64,000 nucleotides of DNA from Anaerolineae bacterium (GCA_034429475.1 DAOUGD010000123.1:6934-70933), one strand, 5' to 3'. Shown: positions 21,881 to 53,310, counted from the stretch's first letter. The notes: a model not told the origin generated them from the letters alone. Numbers and translations are program-made.

Positions 21881-23524
21881 ATGGACACCGTCGAATCACT
21901 CAAGGATCGCCGTCGCATGTATTTGAGCGCCGCGCGGGAAAAGCTGTGCTTGTTGGCTCGCGCCGCCCTGAACGTCACATTGGACCCAATCAGGGATGTC
22001 CGCCTCATCGCCGGGCCACGAGCCGGGGCGCTACTGATTGACGCCGGGGTGGCGGGGGGCGCCCTCATGAACTATCTCCGCGCCGACGAGTGCGCGAACG
22101 CGCGCCAGATTGTGCGGTGGGAATTCACCGGGGACCCCACCGTCGGGATGGATGGAGTGTACGTGCGCCTGGAAGCCAATTGGCCCGCCGACCTGGCCGA
22201 TACCGCGATTGAACTCCGGGCCGTCAGCCGGCATCCCCTGGGTTACGGACGCTGGATCGCCGCGCAGAACGAAAACGGCGTCACTATCAACGGCATTTTC
22301 GATGACCAGACCCCCCATTGGTTGATCGGCGGCACGTCGGGGTCGGGCAAGACTACCGCGATCCTGTCGTTGGTCTACCAGTTGTCGCGCAGGGTTTCCC
22401 CGAAGACCCGCCGGGAGCGGGAACAAAAAGAACGCGACCACGAAGCGGAAATGGCTAAAAAGCACGGGCGCGCGCCCCGGGAGATTGTTCCGGAAAACCC
22501 AGATACCCGGTTAGTCCTGATTGATGGGCGCAACGGCGCCGGCCTGGCGGTGCTACAGAGGTTACCCCACCTGGTCGGCCCCCTGGCCACCGACATTGAC
22601 AGCGCCACACTGGCTCTGGCCTGGGTAGACGCGGAGATCGACCGGCGTAATCGTCTCATCGTAGCGCAGGGCGCGGCTGCGGTACGGGCGCTGCCCCGGA
22701 TTGTCGTGGTCATTGATGAATTTCAAGAGCTGTTTCAGGATCCGACCGTGCGGGAACTGGCCCGGAAGGGGTTAGCCACCGGGCGGGCCGTCCGGGTCAG
22801 CTTTGTACTGGCAACCCAAAGTCCCGCGATGGCCGCGTTCGGCGACGACACGTCGATGCGGCGGAACCTGAGTGGGCGGATCGCCTTGCGCGTTACCGAT
22901 GGTGATGCCAGTCGGGTCGTAATGGGCAACTCCGACTTCCACGCCGAACGGTTGGCGGGGCAGGGCGACTGCTACATCCTCACCCCGGAACGCACGCAGC
23001 GCGCGCAAATCTGCTACCTGGATCCGGAAGACATCGCGGAGGAACCGCAGTATGAACCAGAACTGGCCGAGTGGCCAGAACCGGCGCAAACCCTGCCTGG
23101 CCAAAGCCAGATGACCAACTACGCCTTCTCCGGGACGGAACTGGCCCACGCGCTCCACGCTGTTACGCAAGGCTGGGGGCGCAATCGGCTGGGAGATACA
23201 ATGGTTGCCGCCGGTCTGGGTCGTCCAGGGGGAGCGCGGGGGCCGCGGTTACTCAAGGTGGGACGTGAACTGCAAGACACCCTGGAAACGTTGGGGCTGA
23301 TCGTCGTAGTCGCCCCGACCACAGACTCCGACCTGGAGGCCGCAGACCCTGAGCAGGAGGCCGTAGATTCCGCGCCGGAAACCGCCAGGACCGAGCCAGT
23401 CCCGGCATTTTCCCCGACGGACGGGGAATGGGCCGAGATAGATCCTGACCGGGTCACCCCTACACCGCGCCGCGGGCGCGCCAGTGGGAAGCGCCGGGGC
23501 AATGGCAATGGGGGGCAACCGTGA
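21881..23524 (+). CDS. FtsK/SpoIIIE-family DNA translocase (TraB/TraSA-like conjugative transfer ATPase)
   Basis: Walker A GGTSGSGKTTAIL; Walker B VVVIDEFQELF; C-terminal Pro/Arg-rich tail. Confidence 0.85.
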   Translation: MDTVESLKDRRRMYLSAAREKLCLLARAALNVTLDPIRDVRLIAGPRAGALLIDAGVAGGALMNYLRADECANARQIVRWEFTGDPTVGMDGVYVRLEANWPADLADTAIELRAVSRHPLGYGRWIAAQNENGVTINGIFDDQTPHWLIGGTSGSGKTTAILSLVYQLSRRVSPKTRREREQKERDHEAEMAKKHGRAPREIVPENPDTRLVLIDGRNGAGLAVLQRLPHLVGPLATDIDSATLALAWVDAEIDRRNRLIVAQGAAAVRALPRIVVVIDEFQELFQDPTVRELARKGLATGRAVRVSFVLATQSPAMAAFGDDTSMRRNLSGRIALRVTDGDASRVVMGNSDFHAERLAGQGDCYILTPERTQRAQICYLDPEDIAEEPQYEPELAEWPEPAQTLPGQSQMTNYAFSGTELAHALHAVTQGWGRNRLGDTMVAAGLGRPGGARGPRLLKVGRELQDTLETLGLIVVVAPTTDSDLEAADPEQEAVDSAPETARTEPVPAFSPTDGEWAEIDPDRVTPTPRRGRASGKRRGNGNGGQP

Positions 23525-23775: not shown

Positions 23776-23776
23776 C

Positions 23777-24382: not shown

Positions 24383-24399
24383 ATCAAGGAGAAAAGACC

Positions 24400-24987: not shown

Positions 24988-24997
24988 GGGCGGAGCG

Positions 24998-25499: not shown

Positions 25500-26735
25500 A
25501 TGGATGCTAATTTGGTCACGACACCGACAATGAACACCGACACCCAGCCCCAGTTCCAGGTCGTGGGCCTGGACGAAGGCGCGGGCGCCGTCAAAATCTA
25601 CACCGCATTCGGCGCAACGGAGTTTAACTCCCAGATCGCCCACAACGGGACGGACGCGCCGGGCGCGGTCGCCGGGCTGGAAACCCTGACCCCGCCCCTG
25701 CAAATCACCTTCACCGGCGGCACGTTCTACACCGGTCCCGGCGCGCACGCCTGGGGCCGCCCGGTGGAGAACCTGGACTTCGGCCGCTTCGCCGGCAGCC
25801 CGGAGATGGCGGCCATCCTCTACGGGGCCTTTACCCGCCATGTCGAAACCTATGGTACACTCGCCCCACTACGGCTCAAGGTCGGCCTGCCGCAGCAGGC
25901 GTTGGCCGGCGAGGCGGGCAAGGAAATCATCCCCGGCGTGAAAAGTTGGCTGACCGGCGCCCATCAGTGGGCGGCGCAGAACGGCCACGTCCCACCCGCG
26001 GCGCGTGCAGCGGCGCGCGAGCACCTGGAACGCTTCGCGGCAACCGCCAGCAAGGACGATCTCATTGCCCGTGCTGCGCAAGAAGGACTGACGCTGGCCC
26101 GCTCCTGGCACAAGGCCCAGATGGTGGACGCCATGCTGGACAATGCCGATCTCGTTGTCAGTTTTGGCGGCGGTACGCTCCACACGGATTACAGCCTGGA
26201 GGTGCGCGATGTGCAGGTGACCTCACAGCCGGTGGGGGCGTGGTTCGACTTCCTGTTGGACGAGGCCGGCAGTTTCCTCCCGGCGCGCAAGCCGCTGTAC
26301 GCCCAGGAAATCGGCGTCATCTCCATCGGTATGAGCACCGTGGAACTGTTGGTCGTACAGCAGGGCAAGGCCAGCCCCCGGTTCACCCGCGGCGAGACTG
26401 AAGGCGTGCAGCGACTGTTGGCCCTGGCGAATCCCCGCAATCACTACTCCCGCGGCGAGATGGACGCCCGGCTGCGCAGCGGAGCGCTCAACACCGAACT
26501 GCCCACCTTGTTGCCGATGTGGTGGCCGGACATCAACGGCCTGATCAATCAGGTATGGGAAAGCACCTGGGAGCGGTTTGGCGCAGTGATCATCGTCGGC
26601 GGTGGGGCGATCTTGTTGGGCGACTACCTGCGGCGCAAGTTCCGCGAGAAGGCCGTCATCCCAGATAGCCCCGTGCTGGCCGTGGCGCGGGGGCTGTACA
26701 AGTTCGGCGTGATGCAGACGCGGCAGGGGAAATGA
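25500..26735 (+). CDS. ParM/StbA-like actin-fold ATPase (plasmid segregation protein)
   Basis: Phosphate-1 like VVGLDEGAGAVKIY and a second phosphate loop ISIGMSTVELLVV; 411 aa. Confidence 0.6.
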   Translation: MDANLVTTPTMNTDTQPQFQVVGLDEGAGAVKIYTAFGATEFNSQIAHNGTDAPGAVAGLETLTPPLQITFTGGTFYTGPGAHAWGRPVENLDFGRFAGSPEMAAILYGAFTRHVETYGTLAPLRLKVGLPQQALAGEAGKEIIPGVKSWLTGAHQWAAQNGHVPPAARAAAREHLERFAATASKDDLIARAAQEGLTLARSWHKAQMVDAMLDNADLVVSFGGGTLHTDYSLEVRDVQVTSQPVGAWFDFLLDEAGSFLPARKPLYAQEIGVISIGMSTVELLVVQQGKASPRFTRGETEGVQRLLALANPRNHYSRGEMDARLRSGALNTELPTLLPMWWPDINGLINQVWESTWERFGAVIIVGGGAILLGDYLRRKFREKAVIPDSPVLAVARGLYKFGVMQTRQGK

Positions 26736-26740
26736 GCGTG

Positions 26741-26789: not shown

Positions 26790-26809
26790 TCCGACCTTTG
26801 AGGTGCAAG

Positions 26810-27049: not shown

Positions 27050-27236
27050 TCTGACGGGGAGTCCCGCGTTTTCCAGGAGAACATTGATGACGCCCATTAC
27101 CTTTGCACACTACGCGGCCCTGGTCTCACCGGCCGACGCCCTGGCTGGCGTCCTCCGTCCAGGATGTCGGCCGGTGAAGCCCGCGCCGCGCCGGTGGCTG
27201 TTGTTCCCATTAATCTTTCACCAACAAGGAGAGCCG

Positions 27237-27578: not shown

Positions 27579-27585
27579 GTAACCG

Positions 27586-27981
27586 ATGCACAGTCAACCA
27601 CAGCCCATAAAAATCACCTTTACCGTGCCGCCAGAAATGGCGCGCATCTTAACGGAGCTGGTGAGTGCGCCCGCGCGCCAGCAACGCCATTTGGCCGAAG
27701 TGTTGATCGCCGAAGCCATGCAGCTCAACCAGGTCGCGGAAAAGTGCCGCGAAGCCACCGCCCCAAACAACCTGGATAACCCCCAGCAGCTAGCTTCTGT
27801 GCTCGAACAGCAGTCAGAATGGCTAACCCATTTAGCGCGCTGGCTATGGAATGTTAGTCAAGGCAGCAATGTCGCGGCTGAGGACTATCAAAACTCTGCC
27901 CCTATCCCGCTGGCAGTCAATGTGCAGCGCGAGTTAGATCGGGGACAAGCGGCGGGAGCTACCCGCGATGGCGACCAATAA
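27586..27981 (+). CDS. hypothetical protein (island), possible RHH-like N-terminus
   Basis: GGAGG RBS; IKITFTVPPEMARILTEL. Confidence 0.45.
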   Translation: MHSQPQPIKITFTVPPEMARILTELVSAPARQQRHLAEVLIAEAMQLNQVAEKCREATAPNNLDNPQQLASVLEQQSEWLTHLARWLWNVSQGSNVAAEDYQNSAPIPLAVNVQRELDRGQAAGATRDGDQ

Positions 27982-28110
27982 CCCCGCCGTAAGGCGGACC
28001 CTGGCCGCGCCGGCGGTCGCCGATGCGTAGCCGTTCCTCTCAACCGGGGGGCTACCGCGGCGCTCGGCGCTGGGCTACCTGGGGGGGCGAGTTAGGGAAA
28101 GGAACTCAGG

Positions 28111-28941
28111 ATGAGCTTTCGCTACTACGGCAGTAAGAAAAGTCTGGCCGCGTGGATTACGGAAATGTTGCCGCGCCACGTCTGCTACGTCGAACCCTAC
28201 GGCGGCAGCGCGGCGGTGTTGCTGCATCGCAATCCACCCGCGCCCCGCGAGGTGTACAACGACCTCGACGACCAGGTCGTGACGCTGTTCCGCGTGCTGC
28301 GTGAGCGTCCAGCGGAGTTGGCCGCGCAGGTTGCCTTCACCCCCTACGCCCGCCGCGAGGTGGAAACCGCCCGCCAGCCGCTGGCTCCCACCCACCCGGA
28401 CTATGACCTGGAAGTGGCCCGCCGTTTCCTGATCCGCGCCGGGCAGACCCGCGCGGGGGCCTCACGGCGGGATGTCCATTGGATCTGGCAAAAGGCAGGG
28501 AATCGGGGCGGCTACTACCCGGCGGAATGGGCCGAGTTGCCGGCGGAACTCCTGCGCATCGCCGCGCGCCTCAAGCACGTCCAGATCGAGCACACGGACG
28601 CGCTGACGGCGATTGTGCGCTACGACAGCCCGCAGACCTGCTTCTACCTCGACCCGCCGTATCTGTTTCCGCACAAGCAGCGCGCCGGGACGTACCGCTG
28701 CGAAATGACGCCGGACGATCATCGGGAACTAGCGCAGCTCCTTCACGACATCAAAGGCATGGCGCTCATCAGCGGCGTGCCGGGCGAGTACGACCAGTTG
28801 TACGGCGACTGGCGGCGCGAATGTCTACCGGCGCTCACCAGCAGTCACACGGTCACGCCGGAATGTGTGTGGCTCTCGCCGGCGGCGCAACGGTACGCCC
28901 CTCAACCGCGCCTGTGGGCCGAGGCCGGCGATGCCCTTTAA
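28111..28941 (+). CDS. DNA adenine methyltransferase, D12 class (Dam-like)
   Basis: N-terminal FRYYGSKKSLAAWI and catalytic DPPY (CFYLDPPYLFP). Confidence 0.85.
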   Translation: MSFRYYGSKKSLAAWITEMLPRHVCYVEPYGGSAAVLLHRNPPAPREVYNDLDDQVVTLFRVLRERPAELAAQVAFTPYARREVETARQPLAPTHPDYDLEVARRFLIRAGQTRAGASRRDVHWIWQKAGNRGGYYPAEWAELPAELLRIAARLKHVQIEHTDALTAIVRYDSPQTCFYLDPPYLFPHKQRAGTYRCEMTPDDHRELAQLLHDIKGMALISGVPGEYDQLYGDWRRECLPALTSSHTVTPECVWLSPAAQRYAPQPRLWAEAGDAL

Positions 28942-29245
28942 GCGTTGGCTGTATCCACGCAATTGGAAAGCGATTGCGGCGCGGATCAAGACGGCGGCGG
29001 GCTGGCGGTGTGAACAATGCGGCCATCCGCACGACCCGGTGGGGTACTATGTCCTGGCAGTGCATCACATTGATGGCGACCGGGCGAACAACGCGGACGA
29101 AAACCTGGTGGCGTTGTGCCAACGCTGTCACCTGGCGCTGCACGCGCGGAAGCTGGTCGGGCAACGGATGTTCGAGTTTGCCTGGCCCACCTGGTGGCGC
29201 AAACGCCAGCCGCCGGCGGAACACGCCGGGGAAAAACACGACTGA
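28931..29245 (+). CDS. HNH endonuclease
   Basis: HNH motif HHIDGDRANNADENLVALCQRCH plus CEQCG zinc knuckle; ATG overlaps the Dam stop by 11 nt. Confidence 0.8.
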   Translation: MPFKRWLYPRNWKAIAARIKTAAGWRCEQCGHPHDPVGYYVLAVHHIDGDRANNADENLVALCQRCHLALHARKLVGQRMFEFAWPTWWRKRQPPAEHAGEKHD

Positions 29246-29266
29246 TTTCGCACAACGGAGGAACCG

Positions 29267-29908
29267 ATGGAAGTGGATAACACATTTATTCCAGATAGAT
29301 TTGCAGATTTGATCGCTGCGGGGCTGATGTGCCCCTATTGTCATATTCCGCTGGTGGCAACTAACTTAGTTCCCCTACACAGATTAGCCATAGGAGTACA
29401 CGCGGGGCGGCCCTGGATCGGGACCACTCATACCCACGCCACTGGCGAACTGACTCACATTTACTGTGAACAGTGCGGCTACCCCGAAATCGTCTGGACA
29501 GAAGCAGAGCAGGTCGCGCTGCGCCAATACGAGATACAAGCCCTGGCTGTGTTCGAGCAGTACCCCGAACAGTTCCCGGTGTATATCTATCGCCAGGATG
29601 ATGGGTTACAGTTTAGCTTGGTTGAAACTGGCGCAAAATTACTCAAAACCATCTATCCGCTTTACCGCGTAATGAGCCGCTCAACATCTCAACCAACGCA
29701 TGTATGGGAGTCGGCGGGAAACGCATTTCACACCCCGGACGCCGCGGCGGCACAGTGTCATTCATTTGGCATTTACGAACAATGGGTCACACCCTTGCGT
29801 CTCTACACGGTGTGGCCATGGGAAGATCGGATATGGATACTACAACCGTTGCATGAAGAGGACTTGTGCAACTACCCGGAGTACCTGACGCCGCAGAGGG
29901 CAAGATAA
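29267..29908 (+). CDS. hypothetical protein with zinc-ribbon Cys pairs (CPYC...CEQC)
   Basis: GGAGG RBS; 213 aa. Confidence 0.5.
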   Translation: MEVDNTFIPDRFADLIAAGLMCPYCHIPLVATNLVPLHRLAIGVHAGRPWIGTTHTHATGELTHIYCEQCGYPEIVWTEAEQVALRQYEIQALAVFEQYPEQFPVYIYRQDDGLQFSLVETGAKLLKTIYPLYRVMSRSTSQPTHVWESAGNAFHTPDAAAAQCHSFGIYEQWVTPLRLYTVWPWEDRIWILQPLHEEDLCNYPEYLTPQRAR

Positions 29909-30949
29909 ATGATCCTGGCATTACCTATCTATACCTGGGGCGCCGCCCCGGAAAACCTGAAAACGCGCCGTCAACTGGCCGAAATGGGCTTACGGCCCGG
30001 CGGCCCGGAAGTGGCGCGCGTGGAGTGGTTCCGGCAGGGGACACCCAGGTTTGCCCGACTGTATGACGTGGCCCAGGCCGTGCCGAAGTCGCCGGCCACG
30101 TCTACGCAGTTAGCCGCACTGGCAAAAGCACGGCTGAAGCGGCAACAATGCCCGGTCTGCGGCTATGCCCTGGGACATATACCGGGTCGGCGTTTCTATC
30201 CACCCACCGATTGCCCACAATGCTGCGCCCGCCAACGCCAGGCAGACCGCGCGCGGGCGACCCAGCGCGCGCAACAGGCATTGGCGAATCCGCAAGCCGT
30301 CATCCTGGACACCGAAACGACTGACCTTGACGGCTACCTTGTCCAGATCGCCGTGTTGAGCGGGGACGGAACGGTGCTGCTGGACACGCGGCTCAACCCG
30401 GGGGCCGCCATCAGCCCGGACGCCCAGGCCATCCACGGAATTACCGCCGAGATGGTGGCAGCTGCGCCCAGGTTTCAGGACATGGAAGCCGAGCTACAAG
30501 CCCTGCTCACTGATCGGCCGGTGTGGATTTACCACGCCGATTTCGACATCGGGGTCCTGGATCGGGAAGTGGAGCGGGCACACCCCCGCGACCGCCACGC
30601 GCCGGGGGAGTGGACGCCAGCGTGGCCGAGTGCGCTGCACCACTATTGCGCGATGGAACTGTACGCGGCGTGGGTAGGCGAGTGGAGCGACTATTACCGC
30701 AACTATCGCTGGCAGCGCCTGCCGGGTGGGGATCACACGGCGCTGGGCGACTGTCAGGCGACATTGGCGGTACTCAAAGCTATGGCCACCGGCGGGAAAC
30801 CAGATGCCGGCTTTCAAACAATGGGCACTGATTGCCAATATTGCCCTACCTGCGCCCGATTTGTCTGGGTGGTGGGGTGCAACGCCGCCGGGCAATTCAT
30901 CTGCCCGGATTGTGGGGCAGTGACGCAGGAACAGGAGTTACCGTTTTGA
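29909..30949 (+). CDS. DEDDh 3-prime-5-prime exonuclease (DnaQ-like) fused to zinc-finger modules
   Basis: Exo I ILDTETTD, Exo II IYHADFDIGVLD, Exo III HTALGDCQATLAVLK; CPVCG and CPDCG zinc fingers. Confidence 0.75.
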   Translation: MILALPIYTWGAAPENLKTRRQLAEMGLRPGGPEVARVEWFRQGTPRFARLYDVAQAVPKSPATSTQLAALAKARLKRQQCPVCGYALGHIPGRRFYPPTDCPQCCARQRQADRARATQRAQQALANPQAVILDTETTDLDGYLVQIAVLSGDGTVLLDTRLNPGAAISPDAQAIHGITAEMVAAAPRFQDMEAELQALLTDRPVWIYHADFDIGVLDREVERAHPRDRHAPGEWTPAWPSALHHYCAMELYAAWVGEWSDYYRNYRWQRLPGGDHTALGDCQATLAVLKAMATGGKPDAGFQTMGTDCQYCPTCARFVWVVGCNAAGQFICPDCGAVTQEQELPF

Positions 30950-31383
30950 TGGACGAGGTCTGGCCTGGCGGGCGCGCTGGCGATCCGCGCGCTCTGGCGT
31001 TGTACCGGCGGCATTACTCGTGCTATCAGTATCGGGACGGCCGCCGCCCTACGCGCTTTGCCGGACCAGGGGACCGCCTGGTGCTGCTCACACCGGAATG
31101 CAATGCCCTGTTGGTATGGCGCAAATTCCGCGATGCCCGCGGGCAGGTCGGCGTGACCTGCGCCGTGTTCCGCAACGCAGGGCCGCGGTTGTCCCGCGAT
31201 TTGCTGCGCGCCGGGATGGCGCGGGTCTGGACGCGCTGGCCAGGCGCACGGTTATATACCTGCGTCAACCCATACCGGATTCGCAGCACCAATCCGGGCT
31301 ACTGTTTTCGAATGGCGGGATGGCGCAAATGCGGGCGCACGCAGGCGCGGCGACTGGTGATTTTGGAGGCATATCCAGATTGA
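30949..31383 (+). CDS. conserved hypothetical plasmid/phage protein
   Basis: ATG overlaps the upstream stop (TGATGG); ALYRRHYSCYQY...NPGYCFRMAGW. Confidence 0.5.
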   Translation: MDEVWPGGRAGDPRALALYRRHYSCYQYRDGRRPTRFAGPGDRLVLLTPECNALLVWRKFRDARGQVGVTCAVFRNAGPRLSRDLLRAGMARVWTRWPGARLYTCVNPYRIRSTNPGYCFRMAGWRKCGRTQARRLVILEAYPD

Positions 31384-31411
31384 GAGTAATGCTGTGAAAC
31401 AAGGACGAGCA

Positions 31412-31783
31412 ATGACCACCAACTCAGACTTCAAAGCCTGGTTATTAACCCAAATCCAGCCGCGTGGTTGGCGACTGGCCGACCTGGCGCGGCACAGTGG
31501 AGTACGCTACACTACCCTCAACCGTATCTTCAGTGGCACGCGGGGCATCGGCCCGGATGTCTGCCGGGCATTGGCACACGCCCTCGGGCTGCCCGCCGAA
31601 ATGGTATTCCGGCAAGCCGGGTTACTCCCGGCGGCGCCCGATCTGACCGCCATCCCGGAACTGCTGGCTGTGGCCCTGGCTATGCTCACCGCGCTGCCGC
31701 CATCCGAGCAGCAATTGATCGGCGAGTTCATTCAATGGCGCTACACCCGCCAGCCATTGGAAAACGCACAGGGGAAACGATGA
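31412..31783 (+). CDS. XRE-family HTH transcriptional regulator (repressor-like)
   Basis: LADLARHSGVRYTTLNRIFSGTRGIGPDVCRALAHALG. Confidence 0.6.
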   Translation: MTTNSDFKAWLLTQIQPRGWRLADLARHSGVRYTTLNRIFSGTRGIGPDVCRALAHALGLPAEMVFRQAGLLPAAPDLTAIPELLAVALAMLTALPPSEQQLIGEFIQWRYTRQPLENAQGKR

Positions 31784-32184
31784 CTGAGAGCCAGGTAGAT
31801 TTCACCGAATTGTCGCATGGCGCGCAACGCCGGATCATGCGCCGCCCCACTGTAGCAGTATTGGCACGGGTCAGTAGGGGCCGGGGCTGGAGCTTGATAT
31901 GGCCGCACAATGCGGCTCACCGGGAAGCATTGCTCATGCAAGGCTACCATCCCATTGGCAATATCCCGGATAAAGCGACGTGGTCCGCGCAACCCCCGCC
32001 CCAGTACGTGGTGCAGTGCGGACGCTGGGGCGTGCAGGTACACGCTGACGGGACGTATACCCTGCGCCGTACGGACTGCCCGATCACCCTGCGACTGACA
32101 GGGCCAGATTTGACCGACGCCACGAACGCGCTGGTGCAGGTCGAGGTTGCCCGCCAACCGGTATTACGGTCCGTTTCAGAATGA
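31780..32184 (+). CDS. hypothetical protein (island)
   Basis: ATG overlaps the upstream stop; the 5-prime part of track ORF 31468..32184 is an out-of-frame overlap. Confidence 0.45.
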   Translation: MTESQVDFTELSHGAQRRIMRRPTVAVLARVSRGRGWSLIWPHNAAHREALLMQGYHPIGNIPDKATWSAQPPPQYVVQCGRWGVQVHADGTYTLRRTDCPITLRLTGPDLTDATNALVQVEVARQPVLRSVSE

Positions 32185-32247
32185 GGCTGGAAAGCATGGC
32201 ACTTATGGTGGGAAATCTTATCAATAGCGTAGGAGTCGTTATACATC

Positions 32248-32592
32248 ATGCGGAATTTGTCTACATGGCTACTGGAGCAGCTGGAACAGCGGCGCTGGGA
32301 TGTTGGCGAATTGGCGCGGCGCAGCTACCTATCGGAACAAACAATTTACTCGCTGCTCAACCCCAAGACCCCCAACGTCAGATCGGATACCCTGCTCAAA
32401 CTGATCCGCACCCTCAAAATTTCGTTAGTCACCTTTGCGGTGCAGCTTAGCGGAATGCCCGAATATCGCCAGCCCGAAACGCTGGAAATCGCCGATCTGT
32501 GCGATTTGTTGGGGGATGACGAACGGCGCGTCATTCTGGGTATCGTACGCTCACTATTCTCTGAGGCGAAAGATGATCCAGACGAGATATGA
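32248..32592 (+). CDS. XRE-family HTH transcriptional regulator
   Basis: VGELARRSYLSEQTIYSLLNPKTPNVRSDTLLKLIRTLKISLVTF. Confidence 0.55.
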   Translation: MRNLSTWLLEQLEQRRWDVGELARRSYLSEQTIYSLLNPKTPNVRSDTLLKLIRTLKISLVTFAVQLSGMPEYRQPETLEIADLCDLLGDDERRVILGIVRSLFSEAKDDPDEI

Positions 32593-32814
32593 GCAGCGTG
32601 GGACAGCCGGCCAGCGGAGACTGGCCGGTAGAAATCCCGACCACGCACTGGGCGCGGTGGCTGGAACAGGCGCGGCAGGTATAACAGCCGCTACGCCCGG
32701 TTGAAAATCGGGCCGACGGCCCAAGCCTCGTTCATCGTGACCGTGCAGTTAACGCTAGACGAGTTGGGTGAGATTCTGGCCAGGGCAATACGCAATGGAG
32801 ATAGGGTGGTGAAA

Positions 32815-33663
32815 ATGGAAACGAAAGCCTTCGATGGCGCCCGCGTGTGGCAAGCGGCGCTGGGGGAACTGCAATTGCAGATGACCAGCGCCACCTATCA
32901 TACGTGGCTGAGTGATACGCGCTGGGTGGCGACGGATACCGACAGTGAGACACTGATCATCGCGGTGAAGAATGGCTATGCCGTGGAGTGGCTCTCCAAC
33001 CGGCTGTACCCGGTCGTCGAGCGCACCCTCAAGCGCATCACTGGCAACGGTTGGGCAGCGCAGTTCGTTGTTCAGGAGCCTACCCCCATCCAGCGCCCGG
33101 AGTGGTTGGCGACTGAAGTCGCATGGCGCGCCCCGGACTTTGATCCGAGCGACCCCAAGAAAGTGGCCGGGTGGGTACCGGTGCCGGAGTACGGGCAACT
33201 GTTCTGGGCGCCCTTGTTGGGGCCGATTGCCTGGCGGGTGTGGGAGATCGTGCGGCGTACCGACCATCAGGGCGCACCTCACGATTGGACACCGCGTGTG
33301 CGTTACAGCGCACCGGAACTGGCCCGGCTCGTGCCGTGCGGCAAGCAGGCCTTGACCGGGCGCAACCGGCAGTGTGATCCCGATACCCCTGGGGCGCAAG
33401 AAATGACGCTGACGCCACTGGGCCAGGCCGCCATGACGACTTGGGCGCGGCACAACCCTGGTGCGTTTGACCGGTTGCAGCAGTATGATTTGGCCGAGAT
33501 CACTGTCAGTGGCAGTGGCCGGCGCCAGGTCTATACGCTGAGTGTGCGTTGGCGGTTGCCATTGCTACACCCCACCGAGGTCGCGGAACTCAGCGCTGAG
33601 CTACAAATCCGCCATGACCAGTGGGTACTGGAACACGGCATGGATCCGGAGTTGTGGGCATAA
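32815..33663 (+). CDS. putative replication initiator with DnaA N-terminal-like domain
   Basis: ARVWQAALGELQLQMTSATYHTWLSDTRWVATDTDSETLIIAVKNGYAVEWLSNRLYPVVERTL resembles the DnaA_N fold pattern; followed immediately by iterons. Confidence 0.5.
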   Translation: METKAFDGARVWQAALGELQLQMTSATYHTWLSDTRWVATDTDSETLIIAVKNGYAVEWLSNRLYPVVERTLKRITGNGWAAQFVVQEPTPIQRPEWLATEVAWRAPDFDPSDPKKVAGWVPVPEYGQLFWAPLLGPIAWRVWEIVRRTDHQGAPHDWTPRVRYSAPELARLVPCGKQALTGRNRQCDPDTPGAQEMTLTPLGQAAMTTWARHNPGAFDRLQQYDLAEITVSGSGRRQVYTLSVRWRLPLLHPTEVAELSAELQIRHDQWVLEHGMDPELWA

Positions 33664-34207
33664 AACCACGATACGGTGCAAATGCACCGAATATATGATG
33701 CAAATGCACCGATAATGTAACGAGCAGGTGATTGCGTCCAGAGATCAGTACAGGAAGATTGCAGGAAGCGAGTTATGTTCACTCTGTCAGTGACGTGCGC
33801 CAATCCTACAGATTTGGGAAATAGCGCGGCGTTGATTGTGGTCTGTCTCCATAACCAAGGTCTCGCGTGCCGCTGGAACCCGCGAAGCCCGGTTGCCGGG
33901 GGCAACTTGCGGTCAGACAGTTTTACGTTCTGTTTGCCGGATATGGTAAAGGTGGGCGCCGAAACCGCCGATCAACTACGCCACCTTACCTGGAATTTAC
34001 ATAACACGGCTGAGATGATAGACACCGAAATTGCGGCATTTGAGCATGGCTGCCACTCCGCGACCACCACTGTCCGGTGGAATGGGATCGTCCGGAGGCC
34101 GATCAATCCCCGTTTTCGCTGCAAATGCACCGAATATCCGATGCAAATGCACCGATAATGATGCAGCAAACTGTCTAAAGAGTAATATCGCACACAAAAA
34201 ATTACTC

Positions 34208-47548: not shown

Positions 47549-47983
47549 ATGGGGATAACGGAACGAGGCACGGGTAAAAACCACGGGCACGGGAAAGCCG
47601 GGCGCGCGGGGGAAGCCGGAACGGTGCGCCTGATTCGCTTCCTGGTAGCGTTGGCGGGCGGCGATCCGCGCCAATGCCAGTTACCGCCGTTGAAACGGCC
47701 CTTGCGGGTGACGGTGCAGCGGGGAGATACGGACGAATTACGGTACATCGTCATTGCGCCGGCGGGCCGCGCCGTAGCGGGGAACTTTGTGCATATTGCC
47801 GGGCCGGTGGTTGCGGTGAACGCTACTACGGTGCAAGTGCAGGGGAATAGCGAGGCTGCACCGGTGTCCGTGACGTTGGCCGGCGCCGGGAACGTGCCGC
47901 AGTTGGGGCAATGGTTGGCGGGTTGTGGACAGTTGCAGGGCCAAGCCATCGTCATTGAACAGTGGGAGGTCAAAGATGTTTAA
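47549..47983 (+). CDS. hypothetical protein, translationally coupled to the ssb-like gene (start uncertain)
   Basis: Its stop TAA overlaps the SSB ATG; Val/Gly-rich, possible beta-rich fold. Confidence 0.35.
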   Translation: MGITERGTGKNHGHGKAGRAGEAGTVRLIRFLVALAGGDPRQCQLPPLKRPLRVTVQRGDTDELRYIVIAPAGRAVAGNFVHIAGPVVAVNATTVQVQGNSEAAPVSVTLAGAGNVPQLGQWLAGCGQLQGQAIVIEQWEVKDV

Positions 47984-48383
47984 CCAGGTGTTTTTGATCG
48001 GCCGCATCGGGCGGTTGGAGGTGCGCCCGGTAAGTGAGAGCGGGCGACAGCAGACCCGCGCGCGGCTGGCGACGGTGCGCAAGTGGCGCGATTTGGCCGG
48101 GGCGCTGCAAGACAAGACCACCTGGCATACGGTGGTGGGGTGGGAAGCGAACGCCGCGTTGCTGGCCGAAGTGCAGGTGGGTGACACCGTATTCATCGCC
48201 GGGTACATTGACAATGACGACAGCGGTGCGACGTTTCACAGTTCCGTCGTCGCGCAGAAGGTACTGCGACTCGGCGGCAAAGCGGCGGAGTTGGATAGGC
48301 AACGCCTGGCCGAGCAGGTAGCGACCATGGATGTGGCGACGCAGAACTGGCTACGGAAACTGTTGCAAGTGTCGGAGAACTGA
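47976..48383 (+). CDS. ssb: single-stranded DNA-binding protein (SSB-like OB fold)
   Basis: MFNQVFLIGRIGRLEVRPVSESGRQQTRARLATVRKWRD...WHTVVGWEANAALLAEVQVGDTVFIAGYIDNDD matches the SSB N-terminal pattern; RBS GGGAGG. Confidence 0.65.
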   Translation: MFNQVFLIGRIGRLEVRPVSESGRQQTRARLATVRKWRDLAGALQDKTTWHTVVGWEANAALLAEVQVGDTVFIAGYIDNDDSGATFHSSVVAQKVLRLGGKAAELDRQRLAEQVATMDVATQNWLRKLLQVSEN

Positions 48384-48660
48384 GGGAGCGCATAGCGCCG
48401 CTGCGGCCAGTCGCTCTGACCCGGCACAACGACCTGGTGGTTGCGCGCGCCTCACCGGGAGTCGCTCGGCCTGGACTGCCCGGTATCCGCCTTGGTCCAG
48501 CATAACGCCCCGGACCTGGCGGTTACCCCCGACTAACCCGGGAGTTATCCGGCCTGACTACCCGGTATCCGCCTCGGCCCGGCACAACGACCCCGCGGCT
48601 TGTCCCGGTACGGGGGCTACGGCGGTACGCTGGCAGGCAAGCCGGGGCGAGACAACAAAA

Positions 48661-48690
48661 AAGAGAAGTCCGGGGGACTTCTCCTTTGGA
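48661..48690 (+). terminator. hairpin GAGAAGTCC-GGG-GGACTTCTC followed by CTTTGG
   Basis: 9-bp perfect stem read directly; downstream of ssb. Confidence 0.4.
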
Positions 48691-48781
48691 ACGGCGACCT
48701 CTCCCGGTAAGCTTTCATACCAGGCCACTATCCCTGGAAACGTGCTCCGCGCGGGTGATCTAACTAAACTATAACACGGAG

Positions 48782-49315
48782 ATGAAAATGCGCAACTGGC
48801 TTATTGCCCTCATTGCCGGGCTGCTCTTGATTGTCCCGCCGCTCGTCGGCTACGCCACCGCGCCGTGCGACTCATTGACGGCGCAGCCCCTGGTATTGTC
48901 CCCGTATCGGCTGGCGCAGCAACGGTATCTGACCCGCGCCGCCGCCGCGTTAACCGAAATGGCGGCCATCGCGCCAGAACTCCAGGCCCTCGCGGCGCAA
49001 ACCGCGCCGGTCAGCAGCGCAGAGGCGTTTCGCCGCGCCGGGCGCGCGACCGACCTCGCCACCCGGTTGGAACAAATCGCCTTGCCGGACCCGCCCGCCG
49101 TCTATACCCTGTTAGGGGAACGGTTGGCCCAGGTGCGTGATACCTACATTCTGGCTGCCGAAGATTTGCTGGCCTACCTGGGCAACCATGACCTGGCGCA
49201 ACTCCAGGCCGCCGGCGAGGCGTTGACCCTGGCGGATACCGTACGCGCCGAATTGGAGGAGGCCGTCGTCGGCCTGCACTATCCATTGTGCCGCGAGGTG
49301 TGGCGCAATGAGTGA
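48782..49315 (+). CDS. secreted hypothetical protein
   Basis: Signal peptide MRNWLIALIAGLLLIVPPLVGYATA. Confidence 0.5.
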   Translation: MKMRNWLIALIAGLLLIVPPLVGYATAPCDSLTAQPLVLSPYRLAQQRYLTRAAAALTEMAAIAPELQALAAQTAPVSSAEAFRRAGRATDLATRLEQIALPDPPAVYTLLGERLAQVRDTYILAAEDLLAYLGNHDLAQLQAAGEALTLADTVRAELEEAVVGLHYPLCREVWRNE

Positions 49316-50993
49316 AGCATTTGCCGAAAATGCCATCATCCAACTGCTGCGGGCGCAACTGGCGCACGACCAGGAGCAATTGGCCACCGCCACTTATCGG
49401 CAGAAACGCGCCGAAGAACTGCTGGGCAAATACCTGACCACGCTCTTTTCGGTAGCCTGGGGACAGGCGACCGCCGCCCGCGCCGACGTCCTGCGCTATG
49501 CCGAAGAAATGTTAGGGACGCTATCCGGCGCAGGCGGGCGCGCGCCGGACACGGCTGCCGCCATGACGGTGCTGCGCCAATACCTGGAAATTTTCGGCGT
49601 AACCTCCGCACCCGATGCCGCGCCCTCTGCCGTGATCGCGCTGGCCCAGCAGCACTTACCAACTATCACGCAGCAGTGGTCTACGCGGGCAAACGGGGAA
49701 GCGGCGGGCACCGCACCGGAGGCCGCACCCGCGATCACGCCGGACGTTGCGGGTGTCAGCGCCGTACTGCGTGCATACCTGACAGCCCTGAATGTGCCGT
49801 TCTCTGGCGCAGCCAGTCTGGTCAACCTGGCGGAACTGGCCCGGCAACAATTGCCACGGCTGAATCAACGGGTGGCCGCAGCCCCGCCACCGGTGGCGCT
49901 CCCTACGCCGCCGTCACCCGCCGTCGCGCCCCCCCCGCCGGTCGTGACGCCGGTGAGCAATCCTCTAGTATCCCTGCCTGGCTCCACCCTGCCGGATGCT
50001 GCCATCGAAGCCTGGCGCATCATTGGACGGGAACCCGCTTGGGAAAAAGCCGAGCCAGCCTTTGTGCAAGCCACCGGCCACTCGCCGGCAATGTTCCGGG
50101 ATATGGTAGAAGTACTGATGCAGCAGCACCTGTTAGGCTTGTACAAGGCGCCGGTCACCCCGCGGCACGCGGGGTTTTGCAATCCCCGGCTATTACAGAT
50201 CGGGGTTGCCGGCGCCGCGCAGTATCGCGCGCGCTTCGGGTGTGATCCGGTTCCCCTCAAAGAGTTTCTGGGCAAATACCACGTTACGGAGGCCTCCGCA
50301 CTTACCTGGTGGTTGATCCGCGCCACCCGCAATGTCATCCTCAATGGGCAACTGTTACCGGAGAACCCCTTTACTATCGAAGTGTTTGATCTGGCTGAAG
50401 GTATCCCGGACGGCTATCAGCGTGAATATGGCGAATGCCGGAATCCCAACAAGGCGGGTGATGAAAAATGCAGCGTACCGGATTTGTTTGTGGAACTCCA
50501 ACCACGCGGGGGGCCGCTAACCCGCGTGTGTGTGGAATGCGAGCGGGGCCGGTATGCCAATCAAGCCCTGAAACAGAAGTTGCGCTGGACCATGCACAAT
50601 TACGCGCAAGCTGGTTTTGCCGGGGTGTACTATGTCGCGCCGTCCGCAACCGAAGCGCGGCTGTTACACCGCGCCCTAGCAAAGCTGGCCGCCGATTTAC
50701 GGCAGACCCCGCAGATGGTGGAGCGCGGGATGCTGGCGCTCTTCACCTTTGACGCGCTGGTAGACCACTGGCTGCCGTCGCCAGCGATGGTGGATCGCTG
50801 GGCTGGTGACGCTGGTTTCCCGGCAGCAGAGGGATCGAACGCCGCAGATGCGGCGGCTGTAGCTGTGCCAACTGAAGGCGAAGTTAATAAGGCGGGAGGG
50901 GAACCGCCGACTGCGGCCCACGCTATCTGCCGGCTGAAACACCGGCAACGGCCGGGCAATGCAAACCGTGCGGTGCGCCCTACAGGAGAATAA
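49308..50993 (+). CDS. hypothetical 561-aa protein: N-terminal internal helical repeats, Pro-rich linker, C-terminal Cys-containing nuclease-like domain
   Basis: C-terminal region ...GYQREYGECRNPNKAGDEKCSVPDLFVELQPRGGPLTRVCVECERGRYANQALKQKLRWTMHNY...; loosely resembles the PD-(D/E)xK / Hjc layout (E ... PD ... ExE/K), low certainty. Confidence 0.55.
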   Translation: MSEAFAENAIIQLLRAQLAHDQEQLATATYRQKRAEELLGKYLTTLFSVAWGQATAARADVLRYAEEMLGTLSGAGGRAPDTAAAMTVLRQYLEIFGVTSAPDAAPSAVIALAQQHLPTITQQWSTRANGEAAGTAPEAAPAITPDVAGVSAVLRAYLTALNVPFSGAASLVNLAELARQQLPRLNQRVAAAPPPVALPTPPSPAVAPPPPVVTPVSNPLVSLPGSTLPDAAIEAWRIIGREPAWEKAEPAFVQATGHSPAMFRDMVEVLMQQHLLGLYKAPVTPRHAGFCNPRLLQIGVAGAAQYRARFGCDPVPLKEFLGKYHVTEASALTWWLIRATRNVILNGQLLPENPFTIEVFDLAEGIPDGYQREYGECRNPNKAGDEKCSVPDLFVELQPRGGPLTRVCVECERGRYANQALKQKLRWTMHNYAQAGFAGVYYVAPSATEARLLHRALAKLAADLRQTPQMVERGMLALFTFDALVDHWLPSPAMVDRWAGDAGFPAAEGSNAADAAAVAVPTEGEVNKAGGEPPTAAHAICRLKHRQRPGNANRAVRPTGE

Positions 50994-51188
50994 ATGATGG
51001 AAATTTGGATTACCCGCCTGGCATTGCTCTGGTTGGATGGTAGTATCTTGCTCCTGGCCGCGTTACTATCTGTCGGCCCGTATGTACTGGCCCTAGCTGG
51101 CGCGGGGTTGCTGGCTGGAAGGCCACGCTATCGCCGGCAACGAGCGCCGGGACGAACAGCGCCGCCGCAGCGATTCACGCTGCGGTAA
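50994..51188 (+). CDS. small 2-TM protein (MEIWITRLALLWLDGSILLLAALLSVGPYVLALAG...)
   Basis: Immediately follows the upstream stop; a paralog sits at 51942..52133. Confidence 0.5.
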   Translation: MMEIWITRLALLWLDGSILLLAALLSVGPYVLALAGAGLLAGRPRYRRQRAPGRTAPPQRFTLR

Positions 51189-51261
51189 GCGACGACATGG
51201 AGCCGCTCAGCCCGTCTGCGCGCTCCGACTAAGCCTGCTTGCGTAGTTGTGATAGCAACAG

Positions 51262-51942
51262 TTGCATCCCTGGCTCAGACACCCCCGGCAACAGCAGAGC
51301 AAATATCACATCACCGTCGCCTCGCCCATCACCTGGTGGCTGATCCGCGCCACGCGCAATGCCCTCCTCAATGGCCGGCTTTTGCCGGATAACCCTTTTG
51401 CAATCGAAGTGTTTGACCTGGCTGAGGGTATCCCCGAAGGCTATCAGCGGGAATACGGCGAGTGCCGGAGCGCCGACAAAGTGGGGGATGAAAAATGCAG
51501 CGTACCGGATTTGTTCGTGGAATTGCAAGCGCGCGGCGGACCGCTGACCCGGCTGTGCGTGGAGTGCGAACGCGGGCGATACGCCAATCAGGCCTTGAAG
51601 CAAAAGCTGCGCTGGACAATGCACAACTACGGCCAGGCTGGCTTCGCCGGGGTGTACTACGTCGCGCCGGCCGCGCCGGAAGCCCGGCTGTTACAACGGG
51701 CGCTGGGCAAACTGGCCGCCGACTTGCGGCAGACGCCGACGCTGGTGGAGAAAGGGTTGCTGGCGATCTTCACGTTTGACGCCCTGATAGACCACTGGCT
51801 ACCGTCGCCGGCGATGGTAGACCGCTGGGGGAGCGGCATCCCGGCGGAGGAAATCCCGGCCACTGCCGCGCGCGCCGTATGCCGGCTCAAGCATCGGCAA
51901 CGCGCCGGGAATACGCAACCATTGCCTGGAGGAGAAGAGTGA
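51262..51942 (+). CDS. stand-alone paralog of the C-terminal nuclease-like domain of the 49308..50993 protein
   Basis: About 85% identical to the first copy at protein and DNA level from ITWWLIRATRN onward; N-terminal 25 aa unrelated (start uncertain). Confidence 0.55.
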   Translation: MHPWLRHPRQQQSKYHITVASPITWWLIRATRNALLNGRLLPDNPFAIEVFDLAEGIPEGYQREYGECRSADKVGDEKCSVPDLFVELQARGGPLTRLCVECERGRYANQALKQKLRWTMHNYGQAGFAGVYYVAPAAPEARLLQRALGKLAADLRQTPTLVEKGLLAIFTFDALIDHWLPSPAMVDRWGSGIPAEEIPATAARAVCRLKHRQRAGNTQPLPGGEE

Positions 51943-52133
51943 TGGAGATTTGGCTGACGCGGATTGCATTATTGTGGTTGGATGGGAGCATTTTGTTGCT
52001 GGCGGCGCTGGTGTCTGTCGGGCCGTATGCGTTGGCGCTGATCGGGGCGACTTTGTTGATAAATTGGCCACGCAAGCCACAGAGGCGACAATCGGAGCGC
52101 GCGCTGGCACCACCACGGTTCACACTGCGCTAA
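51942..52133 (+). CDS. small 2-TM protein, paralog of 50994..51188
   Basis: MEIWLTRIALLWLDGSILLLAALVSVGPYALALIGA; ATG overlaps the upstream stop. Confidence 0.5.
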   Translation: MEIWLTRIALLWLDGSILLLAALVSVGPYALALIGATLLINWPRKPQRRQSERALAPPRFTLR

Positions 52134-52666
52134 AAACCCAGCGCAGAAGGTGGTACCAATTTCTCCCGCCGATGGCTGGGATACTACGACTAGTGCTTCT
52201 GAATGGCGCTGACGTCATTGCCATACAGCTCCGCTACTCACAATCCGAGGTAGAGTGATCCAAGACGAATTTGGCGGGTATTCTGGTTTCCTATGGTAAC
52301 GTTCCACCGCTGACGATATACTCTGACATCTCAACATGAACATAGTATGTGTGGGCGCAATACCCCCTACTTACGCAGTTTGACGGCCAGGGGCCCCCAC
52401 CCGCTACGGCTGGCATGGCTACCATACCAGCTATACTGCACAAAATCTTATGAGAAGCAGCGATCAGATTTCAAAGGGACATATTCCACCTCCGCTGCCC
52501 GACAATGTTGACCGCTACCGTCCATGGCATACCTCAATTGTGGGTTGATTTCAATTCCATTCTCCCAACCCAGGTCTCGGACTATCCATTATTGATAAAT
52601 GGAGTATCAACCAAGGTTAAAGAGGATGATTTTTGCCATAGGGTGGGCGTCAAAGTTTCGCAAGAC

Positions 52667-52769
52667 TCAAGACTACAAAAGTCTTAGCGGACAGTTGGGG
52701 GGACGACGATGCTACGTTGACCTCGGTTTTAGCTTGGCAGTGGGACTACGTTAGACTTTTGTAGTCTTG
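52667..52769. promoter_or_regulatory. inverted repeat TCAAGACTACAAAAGTCTTAG ... TTAGACTTTTGTAGTCTTG flanking about 63 bp, upstream of a PadR gene
   Basis: 19-bp arms are reverse complements (52667-52687, 52751-52769). Confidence 0.5.
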
Positions 52770-52858
52770 TTCGCGAAAAAGCGACGGACACCCTTTGCCA
52801 TACACTCTATTGAAAAAATGTCATTAGATGATATACTGTGGGCGGAGGTGAGAGACCT

Positions 52859-53248
52859 ATGCAAAATCGTGGACGACGTTGCGGAGGACGCGGCTGCGCC
52901 CGGCGGATGGGGCAATTCCTGGACCCCACCCTGCTTTTATTGCTCAAGGCCGCCCCGGCGCACGGCTATACCTTGTTGGGGCGGATGGCCGAGTTCGGCC
53001 TGGACTTTCTGGACGCTACGGTGATCTACCGCACCCTGCGCGAGATGGAGGAGCATGGTTGGGTGACTTCGACCTGGGATGAAGCCGCGACGCAAGGGCC
53101 GCCGCGTCGCGTCTATACCCTCACCCCCCTGGGCGCTGAGGTGTTGGCGTGCTGCGTTTCTCAACTGGAAACCACGCAAGCCACCATTCACCACTTTCTC
53201 GATCTGTATCAAGGAAGCGAATCAGCGAGTGAGCGGATCAGCGAGTAA
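52859..53248 (+). CDS. PadR-family transcriptional regulator
   Basis: LLLLLKAAPAHGYTLLGRMAEFGL...TVIYRTLREMEEHGWVTSTWD...RRVYTLTPLG; the 3-prime end carries 3 tandem 16-bp repeats (53218-53267) spanning the stop. Confidence 0.8.
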   Translation: MQNRGRRCGGRGCARRMGQFLDPTLLLLLKAAPAHGYTLLGRMAEFGLDFLDATVIYRTLREMEEHGWVTSTWDEAATQGPPRRVYTLTPLGAEVLACCVSQLETTQATIHHFLDLYQGSESASERISE

Positions 53249-53310
53249 ACGGATCAGCGAGTGAGAGCACTCAGCACTCAGTCCTCAGCCCTATCTAAGG
53301 AGGTTTGTCT

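Follow-up and report, generated by a model that had tools for sequence, protein, structure and literature searches.

A tandemly repeated nuclease-like unit from Anaerolineae with a distant relationship to Replic_Relax/MOB_C relaxases

The stretch of Anaerolineae bacterium DNA analyzed here (GCA_034429475.1 DAOUGD010000123.1:6934-70933; 64,000 nucleotides, hereafter the window) carries a unit of about 1 kb, composed of a nuclease-like domain and a small membrane-protein gene, twice in direct tandem. The first nuclease-like domain (copy 1) is the C-terminal part of a 561-aa protein, while the second (copy 2) is an open reading frame (ORF) of its own. What does the 561-aa protein do, and why is its nuclease-like part present a second time together with a membrane partner? 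Our analysis shows that the nearest identifiable relatives of the protein are the Replic_Relax/MOB_C "restriction-endonuclease-like" relaxases. We think it probable, with considerable room for doubt, that it is a DNA-processing enzyme for mobile-element replication or transfer in an uncultured Anaerolineae-type Chloroflexota bacterium, that its operon was partially duplicated and that copy 2 is a by-product. The duplication itself is ordinary genome dynamics and indicates no new biological principle. To our knowledge, almost nothing is known about mobile-element replication and transfer in Chloroflexota, and a search of the literature for such elements in this phylum yielded none. The locus defines a rare, unannotated family related to MOB_C, the least understood class of relaxases, and encodes it in a conserved three-gene operon; its main value lies in this uncharacterized Chloroflexota MOB_C-like module and the candidate origin that accompanies it.

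Two diverged copies of one unit

The duplicated region contains the following features, given in window coordinates.

49308..49979, plus strand: N-terminal helical/coiled-coil region and Pro-rich linker of the 561-aa protein, with the LLRxxL...YLxxLFP...QA block
49995..50270, plus strand: winged helix-turn-helix of the 561-aa protein (model residues 6-90, predicted local distance difference test (pLDDT) >90)
50274..50993, plus strand: predicted PD-(D/E)xK nuclease domain, copy 1, aa 323-561 (from model topology and conserved columns)
50459..50489, plus strand: recombination breakpoint interval of copy 1 (equivalent to 51486-51516 in copy 2)
50994..51188, plus strand: small membrane protein, copy 1, 64 aa, a partner gene conserved family-wide
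51189..51261, plus strand: duplication junction or spacer, homologous to neither flank
51262..51942, plus strand: nuclease domain, copy 2, 226 codons, lacking the winged helix-turn-helix; TTG start immediately 3' of an in-frame TAG
51942..52133, plus strand: small membrane protein, copy 2, 63 aa; ATG overlapping the copy 2 stop and GGAGGAG ribosome-binding site
52134..52226, plus strand: conserved flank 3' of the module (blastn of the related loci L006, L009 and L023 against the window reaches 52226 at 72%)

The four ORFs, encoding 561 aa (49308..50993), 64 aa (50994..51188), 226 aa (51262..51942, from TTG) and 63 aa (51942..52133), are identical to the gene calls of the source metagenome (Joint Genome Institute (JGI) contig Ga0226655_10000152, 107 kb, of which the window is a reversed piece). 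A repeat search detected two pairs of direct repeats, one at 50272-50571 and 51299-51598 with 81% identity and a spacing of 1027 nt, the other at 50995-51113 and 51940-52058 with 71% identity and a spacing of 945 nt. BLASTP aligned residues 323-553 of the 561-aa protein with copy 2 at E = 4e-123 (168 of 231 positions identical, including a 25-residue gap; 82% identity over the aligned residues of the two nuclease domains), and the two small membrane proteins are 68% identical to each other (E = 6e-27). ORFs, repeat search and BLASTP thus bear out the two-gene tandem duplication at the positions given in a preliminary description of this DNA, although the identity of about 85% reported there was somewhat high. 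At the DNA level the copies are 80.8% identical over the first 536 gap-free nt of the domain, 62.6% in the domain tail following an indel of 69-75 nt, 64.6% in the small membrane gene and 74.7% over the whole unit. Identity in the flanks around the two copies drops to 44-48%, so the boundaries of the repeat are sharp. The unit starts at K323, in the linker just ahead of nuclease helix 1, and ends with the stop codon of the small gene; copy 2 is therefore a complete catalytic domain with all conserved residues but without the winged helix. The close coupling of nuclease and small gene described earlier is kept in both copies, with the qualification that only in copy 2 do stop and start overlap (TGA and ATG share one base), whereas in copy 1 the TAA stop directly abuts the ATG. 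A GGAG-type ribosome-binding site is kept ahead of both small genes.

The similarity of the two copies is far beyond chance and the duplication is not recent, as had also been stated before: between copy 1 and copy 2, synonymous divergence (dS) is 0.8-1.1 and the ratio of non-synonymous to synonymous divergence (dN/dS) is 0.115. A simple recent duplication in situ was considered and is ruled out by a dS of about 1 together with the uneven divergence along the unit. Could the arrangement instead have arisen when two strain alleles were joined during assembly? The sample is a metagenome, related strains are single-copy and the paralogous modules in the genome break assemblies, all of which would fit such an artefact. 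Against it, the same tandem junction, with its unique spacer of ~110 nt and a near-identical junction sequence, is found in an independent dataset assembled differently (Logan contig L021, SRR23426540) as well as on 7 JGI contigs, and the two copies have distinct flanks. We consider an assembly artefact the least probable of all explanations, with hardly any chance of being correct.

Every other locus of the family, whether close or distant, has a single copy. In the closest orthologue of this kind, P0003, identity to copy 1 is 96% as far as the PD motif; past this motif, identity to copy 2 is 88% and that to copy 1 is 74%, and the deletion of copy 2 is present as well. Informative sites in P0003 are distributed 34:3 (copy 1-like to copy 2-like) to the left of the breakpoint and 28:91 to its right (Fisher p = 5e-14). 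The breakpoint lies inside a stretch of ~29 nt that is identical in both copies and codes for DEKCSVPDLF around the PD motif. Since the single-copy orthologue is a chimera of copy 1 and copy 2, the copies recombine. Exchange of copy 2 with other alleles is further indicated by the comparison of the window with L021, in which dS is 0.70 for copy 2 (dN/dS 0.093) versus 0.1-0.2 for the neighboring tail of copy 1 and the first small gene. Judged from these mosaics, copies and alleles of the family recombine often, and modules exchange among paralogues and alleles. Such exchange can account for the tandem structure and for the low dN/dS of copy 2 without copy 2 being translated.

Whether copy 2 has a function of its own is the more difficult question. 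Together with its small membrane partner it may be a retained paralogue, that is, a stand-alone catalytic subunit without a DNA-binding domain, which could pair with the full-length enzyme as a regulator, a dominant-negative partner or a second subunit. Its 226-codon ORF is intact despite a dS of about 1 from copy 1, and dN/dS is 0.09-0.12 in every comparison, that is, with copy 1, with the L021 orthologue bearing the same junction and with the 3' half of P0003 (dN/dS 0.087 at dS 0.49). It keeps every putative catalytic residue and a coupled partner gene with a strong ribosome-binding site and stop/start overlap, it begins precisely at the domain boundary of the structural model, and the identical protein is encoded on 7 contigs. 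No terminator-like site lies in the spacer (51189..51261) between the operon and copy 2. The intact ORF under low dN/dS, the retained residues and partner gene and the precise start all speak against a mere by-product. On the other hand, the only possible full-length start is the TTG immediately after the in-frame TAG, which lacks a Shine-Dalgarno sequence; copy 2 offers neither ATG nor GTG as a start and lacks a ribosome-binding site, and the spacer contains no promoter-like site either. The single-copy state of all other loci also argues against a retained function, as does the frameshift of copy 2 in L021, and exchange with functional full-length alleles, as seen in the mosaics, is by itself able to hold dN/dS low. 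On balance, copy 2 is most likely a dispensable recombination by-product, and its coding integrity is probably kept largely by exchange with full-length alleles and not by independent function; a functional paralogue is a possibility to which we attach distinctly less weight.

The frameshift in L021 results from a 25-nt insertion, GGAACTTGCCCTGAGCGAAGTCGAA, at 987-1011 (equivalent to window position ~51754), which also introduces a premature stop. In the same contig the second small gene starts with GTG instead of ATG. The preliminary description had named a frameshifted second copy as something that would refute its reading; copy 2 is frameshifted in L021 but intact in the window. Peptide sequences specific to copy 2 are LHPWLRHPRQQQSK, ECRSADKVGDEK and GSGIPAEEIPATAAR.

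A more far-reaching idea, which we regard as rather unlikely, is that copy 2 and the second small gene form a "silent cassette" without promoter or start codon, through which the expressed enzyme would have its catalytic half, variable C-terminal loop and membrane partner exchanged, or else a modulator of nicking without winged helix, in a family that is a Chloroflexota-restricted MOB_C-like branch. The swap would occur by homologous recombination at the identical block around the PD motif. If true, this would be a cassette-exchange system that could set specificity (incompatibility or exclusion) between co-resident paralogous elements. In the related version copy 2 would be translated, and the resulting subunit without winged helix would modulate nicking by the full-length enzyme. 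Copy 2 apart, the family would represent a hitherto unrecognized line of MOB_C-like nickases, restricted to Chloroflexota and equipped with a three-gene operon of its own and an origin made of 84-nt repeats.

Fold and relatives of the 561-aa protein

When 1.84 billion representative proteins were searched exhaustively with HMMER, 15 clusters at 50% identity were returned, and the family is rare given so few clusters among so many representatives. A third protein search with the family profile added P0017 only, and pattern scans with the close alignment yielded no loci beyond those already known. We traced the family only to Chloroflexota (two metagenome-assembled genomes, MAGs) and to unassigned metagenome contigs. 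All full-length members share a common order of an N-terminal helical block, a Pro-rich linker, a winged-helix-like region, the domain that is duplicated in the window and a C-terminal extension of the form WLPSPAMxDRW ... (F/Y)KHK. The LLRxxL...YLxxLFP...QA block is kept in the N-terminal region of all of them. By eye, the N-terminal 225 aa of the window protein (49308-49980) apparently contain three internal repeats of a ~45-aa helical motif, beginning ELLGKYLTTLFSV..., TVLRQYLEIFGV...ALAQQHLP and AVLRAYLTALNV...ELARQQLP; the motif seems to be present in one copy in most distant members and in two in P0008.

We modeled the winged helix and the nuclease domain with AlphaFold2 from a 17-sequence alignment (pLDDT 86.9, predicted TM-score (pTM) 0.85). 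The model shows a winged helix-turn-helix followed by an alpha-beta-beta-beta-alpha-beta core as in PD-(D/E)xK nucleases (H107-124, E131-137, E169-175, E181-187, H194-210, E215-220). Conserved columns are, in model numbering, D137, Y150, P167-D168-L169, E186, E188, Y192, K198, K200, Y208, Y217-Y218 and D239. D168, with which strand 2 begins, E186/E188 within strand 3 and K198/K200 occupy the places expected for PD-(D/E)xK enzymes, and the corresponding motifs (PD, ExE, KxK) are conserved across the family. In copy 1, catalysis is putatively assigned to D361, D392, E410, E412, K422 and K424, all of which are kept in copy 2 as D52, D83, E101, E103, K113 and K115. The protein is thus predicted to consist of an N-terminal helical region, a winged helix-turn-helix and a PD-(D/E)xK nuclease domain.

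The preliminary description had also noted a Cys4 cluster in this domain, with a C-x9-C spacing. The actual arrangement in copy 1 is C377-x10-C388 ... C408-x2-C411, and the alignment does not support the cluster as a family trait. C377 and C388 sit in a hairpin insertion exclusive to the clade of the window protein, P0003 and P0004, where the model is least confident within the domain core (pLDDT 61). C408 is limited to this clade and P0008, and C411 (the Cys of "ECE") is replaced by V, F or Y in several other members. Judging from the aligned members, the Cys4 cluster is clade-specific, and a metal site within the clade is possible.

Foldseek against the PDB returned matches of the winged helix-turn-helix to the MarR family with probability 1.0 and otherwise only weak matches to FokI and VC1899; searching PDB sequences with the profile yielded no relevant match. 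Against BFVD, a set of predicted viral structures, the best match was gp146 of Bacillus phage G, which covers both domains over 277 columns (E = 1.6e-7, probability 1.0), followed by proteins of phage JL and A7KUX4. A profile scan identified gp146 as a bona fide member of Pfam Replic_Relax PF13814 (E = 4e-25), and RefSeq annotates the homologous proteins of SPO1, JL, CP-51 and 0305phi8-36 as "replication-relaxation" or "replication initiation by nicking". A tblastn search with gp146 against plasmids returned nothing. At the sequence level, the only recurrent family is NCBIfam NF041423 ("MobC family replication-relaxation"), matched weakly by 8 of the 17 members, all in one register that places the nuclease core on profile positions ~140-230 of 240. 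P0011 additionally matches PF13814 at 19.8 bits (E = 9e-4), confined to the winged-helix part, a region that matches Pfam Replic_Relax, PadR and MarR_2. An hhalign comparison of the family with five phage Replic_Relax proteins is colinear over 168 columns (E = 0.029) and pairs PD with PD, ExE with ExD and KxK with KK. The motif series PD ... Ex(D/E) ... K ... Y is present in the family as P167-D168, E186, E188, K198/K200 and Y208, and in the phage members as P173-D174, E191, D193, K205 and Y209. The architecture that characterizes PF13814, a winged helix followed by a PD-(D/E)xK domain of matching fold, is found here as well, with low TM-scores of 0.33-0.44. Of the earlier assignments, the PD-(D/E)xK fold is thus upheld by the model, while the suggested likeness to Hjc-type resolvases gives way to Replic_Relax/MOB_C as nearest relatives; the view that no known family could be assigned no longer applies, as Foldseek, NF041423 and hhalign allow the domain to be placed near these families.

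Replic_Relax was placed in the PD-(D/E)xK superfamily by Steczkiewicz et al. 2012 (PMC3424549) and is a domain of MOB_C relaxases (PMC5357655). MOB_C enzymes such as pAD1 TraX and CloDF13 MobC are restriction-endonuclease-like relaxases with an N-terminal winged helix, for which no covalent DNA intermediate has been observed (2025 review, PMC12857230). ORF200 of phage 0305phi8-36 and gp27.3 of SPO1 were tied to the CloDF13 MobC relaxase by HHpred (PMC3357382).

A role in transcription regulation also needs to be weighed, with the PD-(D/E)xK-like domain as a non-catalytic oligomerization or ligand module. Steczkiewicz et al. 2012 (PMC3424549) listed Replic_Relax as a "predicted transcriptional regulator" owing to its fusion to a helix-turn-helix, the winged helix of the family is MarR/PadR-like and the repeats upstream of the operon could be operators. 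Yet the acidic and Lys residues of the nuclease motifs are invariant or nearly so among members that share 28-40% identity, the restriction-endonuclease-like active site of MOB_C was, according to the 2025 review, confirmed by mutagenesis of pAD1 TraX (PMC12857230), and the genes constantly linked to the nuclease (SSB, DnaA_N, DnaB) indicate DNA processing. A purely regulatory protein therefore appears quite improbable to us.

Operon, candidate origin and genomic setting

Upstream of the duplicated region, the following features of the window are relevant.

32701..33663, plus strand: DnaA_N-domain protein, 320 aa (Pfam DnaA_N, E = 1.4e-7)
47549..47983, plus strand: 144-aa ORF that opens the conserved core module and is called in all related loci
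47976..48383, plus strand: SSB, 135 aa by the JGI call (Pfam SSB, E = 1.3e-12; PHROG 44)
48431..48593, no strand assigned: two tandem direct repeats of 81-82 nt, iteron-like, 72% identity (repeat search)
48595..48687, no strand assigned: two conserved hairpins, the first GCGGCTTGTCCCGG...CAGGCAAGCCGGGG, the second an A-run followed by a 13-bp stem (48659-48687)
48782..49315, plus strand: 175-177-aa protein with N-terminal signal anchor and conserved Cys pair, whose stop overlaps the start of the nuclease gene

The order 144-aa ORF, SSB, long intergenic region, 175-aa protein, winged-helix nuclease and small membrane gene recurs in Anaerolineae/Chloroflexota MAGs. From SSB onward it is found in L002-L009, L014 and L015, and the module order extends to distant members at ~31% identity. 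SSB is a conserved neighbor in L002-L009 and L014. In L010, where the contig starts inside the 175-aa-type gene and SSB is out of view, the same order continues and is directly followed by DnaB. In the distant compact locus L014, a DnaA_N protein is encoded directly upstream of the module; the window DnaA_N ORF is 50% identical to it over the domain, and the 144-aa ORF is homologous to a 153-aa ORF of L014 (E = 7e-6). The 175-aa partner precedes the nuclease gene in 6 of 6 loci examined, and the nuclease is always encoded between this membrane-anchored protein and the small membrane protein. The partner had no family match in Pfam, PHROGs, PADLOC or NCBIfam. Across the window, L002, L006, L010, L014 and L015 it measures 175-192 aa and has two invariant Cys, one within GYATAPCD close to the N-terminus and the other within PLCREVW at the C-terminal end, a pattern that suggests an extracytoplasmic, disulfide-bonded helical domain.

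The small membrane protein consists of a hydrophobic stretch of ~37 aa with WLDG and GPY, followed by a basic tail that ends in RFTLR in copy 1; database comparison gave only a weak, sub-threshold holin match. The WW/LDG and GP(Y/F) motifs and a (R/K)FT(L/V)R C-terminus are conserved at every locus, which identifies the small gene as a fixed partner of the enzyme and not as a polymorphic immunity gene. It is translationally coupled to the nuclease gene throughout, single-copy loci included, so that the co-occurrence of the two, proposed earlier as a check, holds at every locus of the family. This bears directly on the suggestion in the preliminary description that the locus is a toxin/immunity or defence cassette, in which a nuclease effector would be paired with a small membrane immunity protein and copy 2 would be a displaced "orphan" C-terminal (CT) module like those of CdiA-CT/CdiI and Rhs. 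The layout invites the comparison, as the C-terminal domain and small gene are repeated downstream from a domain boundary and the copies recombine; an RHS-repeat gene also lies near the paralogous module in L009. However, PADLOC matched none of the five proteins, and the large protein has a winged helix-turn-helix and no secretion or delivery domain. The copies are ~82% identical with a dN/dS of ~0.1 and are not diversifying, while orphan toxin modules are typically unrelated to one another in sequence. The neighbors SSB, DnaA_N protein and DnaB are constant, and the closest relatives are relaxases and replication nickases. We consider a toxin or defence function very improbable, and this result removes one candidate from the possible new defence or toxin systems.

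A long intergenic region separates SSB from the 175-aa gene in the window (48384-48781), L002 (4674-5090), L006 (6813-7480) and L014 (2030-2404). It contains tandem direct repeats, 2 x 82 nt in both the window and L002, with a homologous array of 4.5 copies x 84 nt in the paralogous module L006 (Tandem Repeats Finder score 429). A conserved hairpin with GCGGCTTGTCCC is common even to L014, whose protein is only ~31% identical and in which the motif forms a 14-nt inverted repeat. The A-run and 13-bp stem (48659-48687) resemble a terminator on the minus strand, and a conserved leader of ~90 nt has TATAAC just before the ribosome-binding site. Rfam, run on 44-54 kb, had no match for the intergenic hairpins. 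In pAD1, TraX binds five direct repeats in the origin of transfer (oriT), 70-120 bp from the nic site (PMC12857230). By analogy, the intergenic repeats are a candidate origin or relaxase-binding site for the winged helix, which makes the module directly testable.

Taken as a mobile-element enzyme, the 561-aa protein would bind the upstream direct repeats through its winged helix, and its nuclease domain (D392, E410/E412, K422/K424; Mg2+-dependent) would nick one strand nearby. Nicking would start rolling-circle-type replication and/or transfer, as in MOB_C, while the two membrane partners may tether the complex at the membrane. Copy 2 would have arisen as a by-product of unequal or illegitimate recombination.

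Several results weigh against this explanation. The window proteins had no usable match in Pfam, PHROGs, PADLOC or NCBIfam, and all sequence links to MOB_C are sub-threshold, at 11-20 bits compared with cut-offs of 25 and 200. For PF13814 (gathering threshold 25.3 bits) the window proteins gave no match at E <= 1 and P0011 was the only one of 17 members to match; for NF041423 (cut-off 200 bits) the best score was 19 bits. The pairwise P of hhalign is only 0.03, and the Foldseek TM-scores to the predicted structures of Replic_Relax proteins are low (0.33-0.44). No nicking site, integrase, type IV secretion system genes or adjacent coupling ATPase were identified, and the boundaries of the element are undefined. 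As no curated threshold is reached, we treat the family as a new divergent branch that probably works in the manner of Replic_Relax/MOB_C and is distantly related to them, and not as a member.

The MAGs GCA_029555965.1 and GCA_035340735.1 each contain two paralogous whole modules on different contigs (L002/L003 versus L006-L009). P0003 and P0004, paralogues in the same MAG, are 58% identical, and homology of the window with the paralogous module spans 47598 to 52226 only. The P0004 module adjoins an IS21-type element (IstA/IstB) and the RHS-repeat gene seen in L009, and contigs tend to end close to paralogous modules.

Within the window, a cluster resembling a mobile genetic element lies at 21400-34200. 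It includes an FtsK/SpoIIIE gene (21881..23524), which lies 26 kb from the module and is missing in the compact related loci, a PHROG "partition protein" of 411 aa (25500..26735) and an RNase_T exonuclease (29909..30949), as well as a D12 methyltransferase, HNH and XRE-type helix-turn-helix proteins and the DnaA_N protein (32701..33663). Between this cluster and the SSB-nuclease module lie ~14 kb of apparent cargo, which encodes large secreted proteins, an acyltransferase and two hybrid histidine kinases. Neither a tRNA scan over the whole window nor Rfam on 44-54 kb gave a match, and hence an att-tRNA boundary was not found. Between the end of the module and a PadR gene, ~700 bp (52134-52837) have no convincing genes and a lower G+C. 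This interval holds most of the promoter-like sites of a scan of 47.3-52.9 kb (8 found versus 1.6 expected), and synteny with the orthologous MAG locus ends just ahead of it; it may be a boundary between element and chromosome. At 53212-53265, the 3' end of the PadR-family gene and the next spacer contain a 22-nt direct repeat (AGGAAGCGAATCAGCGAGTGAG-like) in three overlapping copies with a period of 16 nt.

Comparison with known systems

Compared with generic PD-(D/E)xK nucleases, the family shares the core fold and an acidic/Lys active site with Hjc, the FokI cleavage domain and VC1899 (1xmx). The matches are non-significant (E >= 0.019, TM <= 0.28, with FokI and VC1899 as the weak PDB matches), and the Lys of the window family lies on the following helix, without an ExK triplet.

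Orphan CT modules (CdiA-CT/CdiI, Rhs) resemble the locus in that a C-terminal domain and a small partner gene are repeated after the main gene, from a domain boundary, and in the recombination between the expressed and the downstream copy. In contrast to these modules, the window copies are homologous (~82% protein identity) and under purifying selection, and the system lacks a delivery domain, has a partner conserved family-wide and stands in a replication/transfer context.

The Bacillus phage Replic_Relax proteins (G gp146, SPO1 gp27.3, JL gp149 and 0305phi8-36 ORF200) are the best two-domain fold matches (E = 1.6e-7 to 1e-6 over 277-302 columns) and have the catalytic motifs in common with the family, at a sequence identity of 9-12%. 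They differ from it in their length of ~275 aa, lacking both the N-terminal helical region and the C-terminal extension, and their genes adjoin a large TraG/VirD4-like ATPase.

With MOB_C, PF13814 and NF041423, finally, the family shares the N-terminal winged helix followed by a PD-(D/E)xK domain and the motif order PD ... Ex(D/E) ... (K)xK ... Y. Further likenesses to MOB_C are the direct repeats near the gene, comparable to the pAD1 oriT bound by TraX, the membrane-associated partner proteins and the mobile-element setting. Unlike MOB_C, the window family has an additional conserved helical domain of 100-230 aa at its N-terminus, with a Pro-rich linker, and the conserved WLPSPAMxDRW ... (F/Y)KHK extension at its C-terminus. 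Its partners are two small membrane proteins instead of a coupling ATPase, and it is linked to SSB, DnaA_N and DnaB.

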